A DNA stretch of 64,000 nucleotides from contig NC_057749.1 of NCBI RefSeq assembly GCF_004010195.1, forward strand, positions 13,514,543 to 13,578,542, read 5' to 3'. Position numbers and translations under genes: made by a program. The stretch's first letter is position 1. The number at the start of each line of letters is the position of its first letter. The notes under the pieces were generated by a model that saw only the letters and a program-made list of their open reading frames with translations, was not told the DNA's origin and made no database searches. The stretch comes from Chiloscyllium plagiosum. Taxonomy: Eukaryota. Below, piece by piece: positions 4,801-63,960 of this stretch.

Positions 4801-7800
4801 TTAGTCTTCCTTTGAATTGGCTATCCTTGCCCTTCTAAATGGCCAAGGATTTGGAAGATCTGGTCTAAGTAGCCTTGATGAATTTGACTATGATGAGATT
4901 TTCCCTTATTAGACACGGTCATTGAGGCACTTGCTTATCAGCAAATATTACTTGCCACTCAGCAGTTCAAAACTGGATATTGTCCAGGTCTTACTGCAAA
5001 TGAACATGCACTTCTTCAGTATCTGAGGAGTTGTGAATTGTGCAATCATCAGCAAACATCCACACTTTTGACCTTGTGATGGAGGAAGGTTAATGTTGAA
5101 CCAGCTAAAAATACTGAGCCAAAGACACTACCCTGAGGAACACCTGCAATGATGTCTGCAGTTGAGATGACTGACCTCTGGAAACCAACCATCTTCCTTT
5201 GGGCCAGGTATGATTCCAACCATCAGCATTCCACATTATTCTCTTAGATTCTAATTTTATTAGGACTCCTTGATGTCACACTTGATCAAATGCGCAATGA
5301 TGTTAAGGGCAATCACCCTGACCTCTGAAATTCAGGTCTTTGTCTATGTTTGAACTAAGGCTGCAATTAGGTCAGGAGTTGACCTAACCTGCTCCCAATT
5401 AAGCAATGCCTTTTAAAATACTTATTTTTTCTGGCAAATCCCGATGGATACCCACTCCTTCAGACCCGAGATGATATTTACAGTCTTGTAATTCTGGCCT
5501 CTTGGAACACATTCACTTTTAATGGCTCTACTATTGGTGGCCATGTCTTTAGTTGTCAAGACTCTAAGATTTAGAACTCCTTTCTTAAACAACTTGGCCA
5601 CTCTGCCCCATTTTAATCCACTCCTTAAGATCTACATTTTTAAAATTAAACTTTGCCCTGATCATTTCACATGGTTCGGTAGCAAATTTTGCCTTACAAC
5701 ATTCCCATAAAGCACCTTCAAATGGTTCACAGCATTAAAAACGCAACTTATTACTGTCTCTATTTTCATTCTTTGCAATGCTGCATTCATGCCTAAAAAT
5801 TGCTGCTATTTTTCACAAAAAGTTCATTTAAAATACACAAAGGGGGAATATGAATTGAATAAGGATTACAGCATTTACATCAATTAAATACTTATACAAT
5901 TTTCTTAGCAAATCATTAACTGTTCAAAAAAACAGAAGGATTGCCTTATGGAGACAGGATTTCGCTTCCAATATATACTCTTGCTATTTGATCAAGTTGG
6001 CTAACATCTTTCCTTCATTCGTTCGTTCTTTCATTCATTCATTCAATCACAAGAAACAAAACTCACTTTGAAGAGATCTGCCACCAAACCATAGTCCGCT
6101 ACCTGAAAGATGGGAGCCTCAGGGTCTTTGTTAATAGCCACAATAGTCTGCAAGGAAAGAAGTGCACTCATTAATGATTTTATCATAATGATTTCCCAAA
6201 CAGCTACAATAAAGCAAAATACAACCTGTACATAAAAATTCTTGAGAATTTCATGGGCTCACAAGATTGATTTTAATGCTCTACTGTCAAAAGATATCAT
6301 CTGGGGCCATAAGTACACCATAGGTGGGTTGCGTGCTACAGATGGCACTGTTTCTATGAAATTGACTTATGTCCACTGGCAGATGGCCCGACTGAAGTCT
6401 GAACCCTAGTCCATTCCCCTTTGTACCCTCACACGCATTCTCTGGAGTCCAAATTTTACCTTAGGACAGGGGTGGGGAACCTGCAGCCTTAAGGCTGCAT
6501 GCGGCCTTCTAGGCCACTGTGTGTGGCCTTTTGAATGAATCCAAATTTTGCAGAAAAAATCTTTTATTTTTTATTAATATGTTTTTTTTCGTCCTTTATT
6601 ATTTTTATTTTAATCTTAAAATGAATGTATTTAAAATACCAGAGAGTAAAATAAAATTCAATGAAATAATTCTCACAGACTGACCGCCACAATTAAGAAA
6701 TGTGAATTTTGAAGAATATATAATTGAAGTTTCTTGGATGCGGCCTTATTAGATTACAACTAACATAATGCGGCCTTCCAACCTGAAAAGGTTCCCCACC
6801 TCTGCCTTAGGATATACAGGCAAGATTAAATGGTATTGCCAACTTTAGGAAATCCAAAATTTACCAGGCTCATTCCTGGATTGAACTCATCAAGAACAGC
6901 CAAACAGGTTGGGCCTTTATTCATTCCCGTTTAGAAGAATGAGGGATGATCTTATTGAAACAAACAAGATTCTGAGGTGGTCCCTCAGGGTAGATGTTGA
7001 GAAGATATTGCCATTAGTTGGAGGATTACAGAATAAGGGAACATGGATTTAAAACAGTGAGTTTGTTTCTTCTCTCGAAGAGTAATAATTATCTGGAATT
7101 ATTCATCCCAGAGATTTATGCAGGCTAGAATACTGAAAGTATTCAAAAGAGGATGCAGATAGATTTTTGAGGAGTTGAAGGCTATGGGGAACTGAGGCCT
7201 GGGGCGAAACAGCAATGATCTTTCTGAATGGCAGGGCAGGCTTGAAGGGCCAAATGGCCTACTCCTACTCATAATGTGGTGCAAGTCAGAAGTCACATGA
7301 CACCAGTTTATAGTCCAACAGGTTTCTTTGAAATCACAAGCTTTTGAGGGCAGCTCCATTGTCAAGTGAAGTAGAGGAAAGCGCACAGGGTTAGAATTTA
7401 TAGAAGGAGAGATAATTACAAGATAATTCCAGATAATTAAGAATGCCAAAAGATAGTACAAATGGTGTGAGTGGAATGTCAACAAGCTGACACTCACACC
7501 ATTTGCAAGTGTCAAATGGTGTGAGTGTCAACAACTGAATAGCAAGTGAAGGGACAACCAATGATCTGATTAATTAAGGCAGAGAGATAATTATAAGGCA
7601 GGGAGTTTAAAATAAAATCAAAAATAAGATGGTGCTACAGACAAACTAAATGGCTGAAATTATGTGATAGGTATGAGTTGCATGATGAGGTTCTGACCAA
7701 AGTAACAAGTAATCCAAACCTGTATTAACTAGTTAAGGTAGAGAGATAAAAATAAGTAATCAAGGTGATGGCGTCAAAATAGTGAGGAAGATTATGCAAA

Positions 7801-63081: not shown

Positions 63082-63960
63082 AGGAGAAAGTGAGGACAGC
63101 AGATGCTGGAGATCAGAGTCGGTGGTGTGGTGCTGGAAAAGCACAGCAGTTCAGGCAGCATCCAAAGAATGGGAGAAACGACATTTTGGGCATAAGTTTT
63201 CATCAGGAATGAGACTTGTGGGCCAGAGGGGGTGTGAGATAAATGGGAGGGGGGGTGTGCTGGGGCTGGGGCTGGGGAAGGTAGCTGAGAATGCAATAAG
63301 GTGGGGGAGAAAGTGGTAGTTCAGAGAGGAGGGTGGACCAGATAGATGGGACGTATGATGGACATGTCAAGAGGGCGGTGCCGAGTTGAAGGCTAGGGAC
63401 TAGGATAAGGTCGGGGGAGGGGAAATGAGGAAAATGGTGAAATCCACATTAATCCCATGTGTTTGCAGGTCCCAAGGCAGAAGATACGGCATTCTTCCTC
63501 CAGGCATTTGACGATGGAGGCAGCCCAGGAACTGAATGTCCTTTGTGGAGTGGGAGGGGTAGTTAACGTGTTCAGCTCCAGTGCAGTGGGGTTGGTGGGT
63601 GCGGGTTTCACCGAGATGTTCTCTGAAACGATCCACAAGAAGGCATCCTGTCTTCCTGATGTAGAGGATACCACATTGGGTGCAACAGATACAGTAGATG
63701 ACATTTGTGGAAGTACAGGTAAATTTGTGTCGGATTTGGAAGGATCATTTTGGGCCTTGGACGGTGGTGAGGGTGGAGGTGTGGGCATAGGTTTTGCACT
63801 TCTTGCGGTGGCAGGGGAAGGCGCCAGGAGTGGAGTGTGGACTGGTGGAGGATGTGGATCTGACAAGGGAGGCACGGAGGTAATGGTCTCTCCGAAATGC
63901 TGATAGGGATGGGGAGGAAATATATCCCTATTGGTGGGGTCAGCTATGCACCCCATCGTG
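63082..63960 (-). mobile_element. Penelope (Neptune-type) 3' fragment with GIY-YIG endonuclease relic
   Basis: The minus strand reads KFTCTSTNVIYCICCTQCGILYIRKTGCLLVDRFREHL. Its terminus (63085-63210) matches the short elements at 37552 and 51076. Confidence 0.85.

Follow-up and report, generated by a model that had tools for sequence, protein, structure and literature searches.

Probable fragments of Penelope-like elements with minimal hammerhead motifs in a 64-kb stretch of the Chiloscyllium plagiosum genome

Repeat arms in and around an ETFA-like gene

The stretch of DNA analysed here, hereafter the window, comprises 64,000 nucleotides of the shark Chiloscyllium plagiosum (NCBI RefSeq assembly GCF_004010195.1, contig NC_057749.1, positions 13,514,543 to 13,578,542 of the forward strand) and carries, in and around an ETFA-like gene on its minus strand, a set of short repeats, many of them arranged as inverted pairs, in which a hammerhead ribozyme motif or its decayed remains can be read. 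Altogether, our results support an interpretation whereby these repeats are, very probably, 3'-terminal fragments of several endonuclease-bearing lineages of Penelope-like elements (PLEs) that carry a minimal type I hammerhead. An earlier first-pass annotation, made from the letters of the window, had described them as more than 10 copies, in 64 kb, of at least four unrelated families lying in ETFA introns. When copies are grouped by BLAST, with the elements compared to the window and to reference copies from the same genome, families A to D account for nine insertions with 15 arms, to which a decayed fifth family, E, is added. Five of the nine insertions lie between detected ETFA-like exons, as described earlier, while three lie beyond the last detected exon and one before the first. 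Families A and B align at 66-74% over about 350 nt and have a common 3' terminus; they are related rather than independent, so that the earlier description of four unrelated families does not extend to this pair. The features are as follows (TSD, target-site duplication; ORF, open reading frame; pLTR, pseudo-long terminal repeat).

7283-7380, minus strand, family D arm paired with 8607-8724; outer end of a 1.44-kb inverted-repeat element (7283-8724); hammerhead relic with both boxes decayed
8607-8724, plus strand, family D arm with tail; relic at 8610-8640 keeping CTGACGA and GAAA, with helix II and part of helix III decayed
9210-9563, minus strand, family B inverted arm paired with 9560-9946; hammerhead 9243-9210 with all 11 core letters and ATGT as helix III
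9560-9946, plus strand, family B sense arm; end of a GIY-YIG ORF, pLTR, hammerhead 9871-9904 (G12 to A) and partial tail
12111-12748, strand unassigned, decayed and related family E cluster; three copies whose common sequence has no valid CUGANGA box
13822-13914, minus strand, family D arm with tail, paired with 14435-14518; 5'-truncated within the hammerhead; one end of an element at 13822-14518
14435-14518, plus strand, family D arm without tail; hammerhead decayed
24349-24504, minus strand, single family A copy with tail and no inverted partner; hammerhead 24453-24420 with intact core and ATGT as helix III; TSD of about 9 bp
37599-37763, family C head-to-head pair (37599-37680 minus strand, 37674-37763 plus strand); one arm with G12 to A and a deletion, the other beginning near the cleavage site
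46451-46650, plus strand, single 5'-truncated family B copy with full tail; hammerhead 46542-46575 (G12 to A)
51076-51205, minus strand, family C arm with tail, first arm of the insertion at 51076-51307; decayed hammerhead with a 1-nt deletion in the CUGAUGA box
51214-51307, plus strand, family C arm without tail, second arm of the same insertion; relic 51216-51247 (G12 to A); 16-bp TSD at 51060-51075 and 51308-51323
52238-52385, minus strand, family A arm with tail, paired with 52386-52502; part of a 265-bp fixed-junction palindrome; hammerhead 52342-52309 with intact core and ATGT as helix III
52386-52502, plus strand, family A arm without tail; relic 52429-52462 (G5 to A, G12 to A)
63093-63422, minus strand, longer single family C copy extending to about 300 nt upstream of the hammerhead; decay in helix II and at G12
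16900-61300, minus strand, gene context: ETFA-like exons by domain matches at 16900-16956, 36692-36796 (ETF_alpha) and 61175-61300 (ETF), with a weak match at 47483-47587

As the first-pass annotation had noted, the motifs sit in inverted arms. These are 94% identical in the family A pair (52269-52385 and 52386-52502) and 88% identical in the family B pair (9312-9537 and 9559-9784), and further inverted pairs lie at 51109-51197 with 51221-51309 and at 7283-7461 with 8514-8693. The family B arm at 9210-9563 stops exactly at the C of the cleavage site, with the consequence that helix I is lost. A TSD of about 12 bp can be read from the window around the family A pair at 52238-52502. The earlier description of long and variable TSDs agrees with the 9-16 bp found in the window and the 10-18 bp found in copies of family C elsewhere in the genome.

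Family E is also present at 3004-3060 and 38705-38780 of the window, and a relative with an intact hammerhead was found at L002:810-851 in the genomic sample described below. Given that the three copies at 12.1-12.75 kb have no valid CUGANGA box, loss of the ribozyme core may have occurred in this lineage.

Minimal hammerhead motifs and their decay

The hammerhead motif is present in the window beyond chance. A strict descriptor (CTGANGA, 0-1 extra base, a stem of at least five pairs, GAAA, NN, T and H, that is, not G) matches three sites (minus strand 9243-9210, 24453-24420 and 52342-52309) against a mean of 0.05 in 20 Markov-simulated windows, and with one core mismatch allowed there are six sites in the window against 1.2 in the controls. 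All four motifs quoted in the first-pass annotation (minus 24420-24453, minus 9210-9243, + 51216 and + 8610) are where it had placed them. For work on whole families we used 81 loci (273 kb) from the same 3.56-Gb assembly together with the 64-kb window, and this sample holds 92 strict matches, of which 61 are distinct. The distinct matches agree in several features that the descriptor does not demand: an extra unpaired base follows A9 in 60 of the 61; pair 10.1-11.1 is G-C in 39, G-U in 18 and A-U in 4; helix I has at least two contiguous pairs in 50, as against 4.5% in shuffles; and the helix III tetranucleotide is palindromic in 37 (ACGT in 32, AGCT in 4) and a CpG-decay form of ACGT (ACAT or ATGT) in 19. 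The palindromic segment 15.1-16.1, which has no helix III loop, would allow a dimer.

These features match those described for the minimal hammerheads of PLEs, namely the core boxes, an unpaired base between 9 and 10.1, a G10.1-C11.1 pair, a palindromic 15.1-16.1 without a loop, a long helix II, a short helix I and many covarying families per genome (Cervera and de la Pena 2014, PMC4209133). All of them are common to the shark copies. What differs is the host, here a shark, and the use of AGCU-A rather than ACGU-C at the helix III/cleavage site in family D. Family D has a clear minimal hammerhead in its better genomic copies, for example at L042:221-261, where AGCT-A replaces ACGT-C. Helices I and II differ among families A, B, C, D and E while their pairing is kept; helix covariation was judged from individual real copies, MAFFT having misaligned families A and B against families C to E. 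The earlier statement that stem II varies between families and stays paired thus holds for the better genomic copies and fails for the window's family D copy at + 8610, in which helix II is largely decayed.

Among matches in the wider sample that span the motif, those with intact core boxes number 48 of 58 for family A, 42 of 71 for family C, and 2 of 4 each for families B and D. As judged from their sequences, good copies of families A, B, C and D carry a PLE-type minimal hammerhead, the self-cleavage of which is a prediction. The copies in the window are in a poorer state: 13 of the 15 arms reach the motif, and none of the 15 has a fully intact ribozyme. Three arms keep all eleven core letters but have ATGT instead of ACGT. 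Of the 13 arms extending as far as the motif, 8 show a change of G12 to A, in agreement with the CpG decay of the catalytic core described in the first-pass annotation. In families A and B, an ATG made up of A9, the extra U and G10.1 begins a reading frame that stays open as far as the 3' end, and A+C make up 69-72% of the 71-75 nt that follow the cleavage site. Similarly, the ORF of the Anolis Poseidon element PAc begins at helix II of its hammerhead, downstream of which lies an A+C-rich region (Frangieh et al. 2024, PMC11167929); the frames of the shark families A and B open at the same place in the hammerhead.

Probable connection to Penelope-like elements and RNA evidence

The PLE origin proposed in the first-pass annotation is supported by the PLE type of the minimal hammerheads and by an arm that is continuous with a GIY-YIG endonuclease ORF. 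Of 14403 candidates for GIY-YIG in a Pfam search of the genome, 150 were scored and 47 of these matched. At locus L015 (the same place as L049), a family B arm begins directly after a GIY-YIG match, within the same 146-aa open frame, and homologues of this frame in two shark species and in flatworms carry RVT_1, one of them having RVT_1 plus GIY-YIG. Moreover, in 6 of 12 loci a C-type hammerhead lies 200-620 nt downstream of GIY-YIG on the same strand. No full-length element was seen among the loci examined.

Two further observations concern the endonuclease frame. Among proteins P0002-P0037, the nearest non-shark relatives of the frame at L049:6789-7226 are from flatworms (Clonorchis, Sparganum and Spirometra; 46-65% identity), a likeness that could reflect a conserved clade or horizontal transfer. 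In addition, the shark gene models MAP3K7 isoform X3, WBP2-like and EYA3-like (P0004, P0010 and P0038) contain a stretch that is 65-80% identical to the frame and is either exonised or mis-annotated PLE sequence.

Several results weigh against reading the repeats as PLE fragments with hammerheads. RVT_1 is found in 0 of 75 ORFs flanking GIY-YIG matches, and the apparent long open frames at two GIY-YIG places were rejected as runs of N; the link to a reverse transcriptase therefore comes from the homologues. Family D was never found beside a GIY-YIG ORF in the loci examined. A scan with the Rfam hammerhead models, by which the first-pass annotation had proposed to check its reading, gave no hammerhead in the window at the gathering score or at E up to 10, and none on a 98% family A copy either; we infer that the models miss these motifs because they expect helix III. 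RNA ends at the GUC site, which had also been proposed as a sign of cleavage, are not seen: in one raw poly(A) single-cell RNA run (567 reads aligning at 90% or more), which is a weak test, neither the cleavage site nor any other place on the queried stretch has a pile of read starts or ends. Finally, random 5' truncation alone does not predict one junction shared by many short copies of families A, B and C, a point to which we return below.

The reads of this run show read-through transcription of genomic copies and no sign of cleavage, which agrees with the report on the Anolis element (PMC11167929). Read ends are loose at tail-less and at tailed 3' termini, and at these two 3' ends reads pass into unlike flanks. 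At L038:899-1648, 22 reads continue past the genomic 3' end (position 1642) into one common sequence (agreement 0.88), as expected for transcripts crossing the pLTR-ORF junction of longer elements. Among the listed records that contain the family A stretch, none is recorded as RNA, and near-identical words of family A were found under four organism labels.

The RNA data also bear on the idea, raised in the first-pass annotation, that the repeats are retrozyme-like. Metazoan non-LTR (long terminal repeat) retrozymes consist of tandem units of 170-400 nt in head-to-tail order, carry canonical type I hammerheads and give rise to circular RNA (Cervera and de la Pena 2020, PMC7229834); on this explanation, tandem repeats would be transcribed and self-cleaved into small circular RNAs. 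The shark repeats resemble them in being small and non-coding, in carrying a hammerhead, in deriving from retroelements and in their large numbers within an animal genome; the hammerhead is of type I, and the size of the shark units, 150-400 nt, is similar to that of animal retrozymes (PMC7229834). Unlike retrozymes, the shark units occur singly or as inverted pairs of arms; the window has no head-to-tail tandem array of them, each palindrome strand has only one hammerhead, and their motifs are minimal, without a helix III loop. Among the read joints seen in the RNA run, which was not a proper test for circular RNA, there is no circular junction, the joints being single-contig events, and no read ends gather at the cleavage site. 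We consider a retrozyme origin very improbable.

Insertion architecture and the origin of the short forms

The arrangement of arms, tails and TSDs is best seen in the wider sample. The single family A copy at 24349-24504 has many genomic relatives at 97-98% identity, and among 30 such young family A loci an upstream inverted arm is present in 16, all 16 of which stop at least 23 nt short of the 3' end. The DNA between the young A arms (26-1235 bp) is homologous among loci and is the upstream continuation of the element, and either arm is truncated at many different points. With their many truncation points, these head-to-head arms look like dead-on-arrival copies of an autonomous element. In family C, a tail of about 30-45 nt is present on one arm only in 26 of 27 loci. 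In DNA not chosen for family C, the ends of the C arms fall into two classes and the tail is one-sided in all six tight head-to-head pairs. Five short family A palindromes likewise have a tail on one side. TSDs of 10-18 bp flank 14 of 27 C copies, as against 2 of 256 mismatched-flank controls, and TSDs of 12-13 bp flank four of the five short family A palindromes. The family D pairs are truncated at different points.

Short elements with inverted terminal arms might also be miniature inverted-repeat transposable elements (MITEs), that is, deletion derivatives of DNA transposons moved by a transposase that recognises terminal inverted repeats, as the first-pass annotation had suggested in calling the repeats MITE-like. 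To this we give next to no credence: small size and inverted arms are what the repeats have in common with MITEs, from which they differ in TSDs that vary from 10 to 18 bp, in unequal ends with a one-sided tail, in the frequency of partnerless single arms, and in arms that derive from the 3' end of a GIY-YIG retroelement. Inverted arms with a one-sided tail are instead the published standard form of PLE insertions, so that neither part of the description as MITE-like or retrozyme-like can be kept. In endonuclease-positive (EN+) PLEs, an inverted 5'-truncated copy lies at the 5' end of the insertion and a tail of 30-40 bp at one end (Craig et al. 2021, PMC8557442), and paired hammerhead motifs on opposite strands 100-700 bp apart were noted earlier (PMC4209133). 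By their architecture, the palindromes of the shark have this same standard form, in which two 5'-truncated copies lie head to head with a one-sided tail and a TSD of variable length. Compared with canonical EN+ PLEs, the shark copies are mostly very short (150-700 bp), and some of the short forms have one recurring junction.

We therefore favour a model of PLE fragments in which each fragment would consist of a pseudo-LTR end, a minimal type I hammerhead and the 70-100 nt that lead to the start point of reverse transcription. The PLE protein would cut the two target strands about 10-18 bp apart, cDNA synthesis would be primed on the two strands, from one or the other of two internal start sites that lie about 30-45 nt apart, and the two cDNAs, usually 5'-truncated, would finish head to head. 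In this genome we observe the motif, the architecture, the link to the GIY-YIG ORF and two kinds of 3' end. Priming on both strands, as well as action of the ribozyme as a dimer, would follow from published work: in vitro, the Anolis PLE cuts and extends both strands, and reverse transcription starts at two internal sites that bracket the tail (PMC11167929). Staggered cuts, two start sites and head-to-head cDNAs would together account for inverted pairs with a one-sided tail and a variable TSD, and because the hammerhead lies just upstream of the start sites, nearly every truncated copy would carry it as a passenger.

The recurrent junctions of the short forms speak against this model of PLE fragments. 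The family A palindrome (about 265 bp) has the same junction at all 40 scored places, the best of 2464 first-look candidates, and the family C short form (about 232 bp) has the same junction at all 40 scored places, 27 distinct loci of which were examined; for the family B short form (about 700 bp), 12 other places span the same centre. The genome similarity searches score only the candidates most like the query, and a palindromic query favours copies with the same junction. Such recurrence could mean that the short forms of families A, B and C represent true non-autonomous elements: either PLE proteins would copy each in trans as a unit, in line with the mobilisation in trans proposed in the first-pass annotation, or each would be made anew, whenever one inserts, from a short RNA whose 5' end is fixed. 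Short A and C copies have TSDs of their own. As the short-form junction occurs in 0 of the 30 young A loci, the short A form seems to stem from an older burst of its own. Among 15 young A copies, 5' ends coincide exactly in two cases, a hint of preferred ends. Apart from the bias of the searches, the six tight C pairs in DNA not chosen for family C have junction offsets of -15 to +30 nt, which fit repeated formation better than one master copy, and the different truncation points of the family D pairs speak against copying or re-making of units as well. Overall we regard this explanation as possible, while leaning against it. Arm identity is 0.918 within a copy and 0.90-0.91 between copies. 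The possibility that junctions form at short palindromes in the template was rejected, as these are not enriched over background in the 15 young A copies.

We speculate, tentatively, that the short palindromes of families A (about 265 bp), C (about 232 bp) and B (about 700 bp) represent a distinct non-autonomous 'hairpin' retroelement, which PLE enzymes would spread from an RNA about 120-150 nt long whose 5' end is defined, a proposal that we think rather unlikely to be right. If it were, a hairpin retroelement would exist in at least thousands of copies and place long perfect hairpins in introns. In the window, the middle of the family A palindrome (52346-52424) gives weak, sub-threshold matches to several models of microRNA precursors (best E 0.019), being no more than a long perfect hairpin.

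The window holds other repeats besides the families described here. Three copies of a long interspersed nuclear element (LINE) family with AP-endonuclease and reverse transcriptase matches lie at 39234-40251 (interrupted by 576 N at 39428-40003), 43912-46252 and 59525-61148; the second is cut short at the site of the family B copy at 46451. A three-copy repeat at 32952-33220, 47059-47316 and 50244-50534 contains a tRNA-like segment, with a weak match to a tmRNA model at 47258-47272, and is probably a tRNA-derived short interspersed nuclear element. At 20524-21310 lie fragments of an LTR-type retroelement that match RNase H and, weakly, reverse transcriptase.

In sum, minimal hammerheads of PLEs and repeats derived from PLEs are correctly identified in a shark genome, and the finding concerns a known phenomenon rather than a new principle; our literature search, which covered papers and not Repbase or Dfam entries, returned no paper tying PLE hammerheads to sharks. 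The repeat class is very common in this genome, with 1613-5941 first-look candidates in the assembly for each of four DNA queries representing families A, B and C, and with 36-40 family C arms counted over 214 kb not chosen for that family, and it can now be given its correct annotation. Because the Rfam models have no match to minimal hammerheads, standard pipelines will miss them. Finally, we note that the genomic ends of the shark copies match the two start sites of reverse transcription measured in vitro for the Anolis PLE, which supports the published mechanism in a distant vertebrate.

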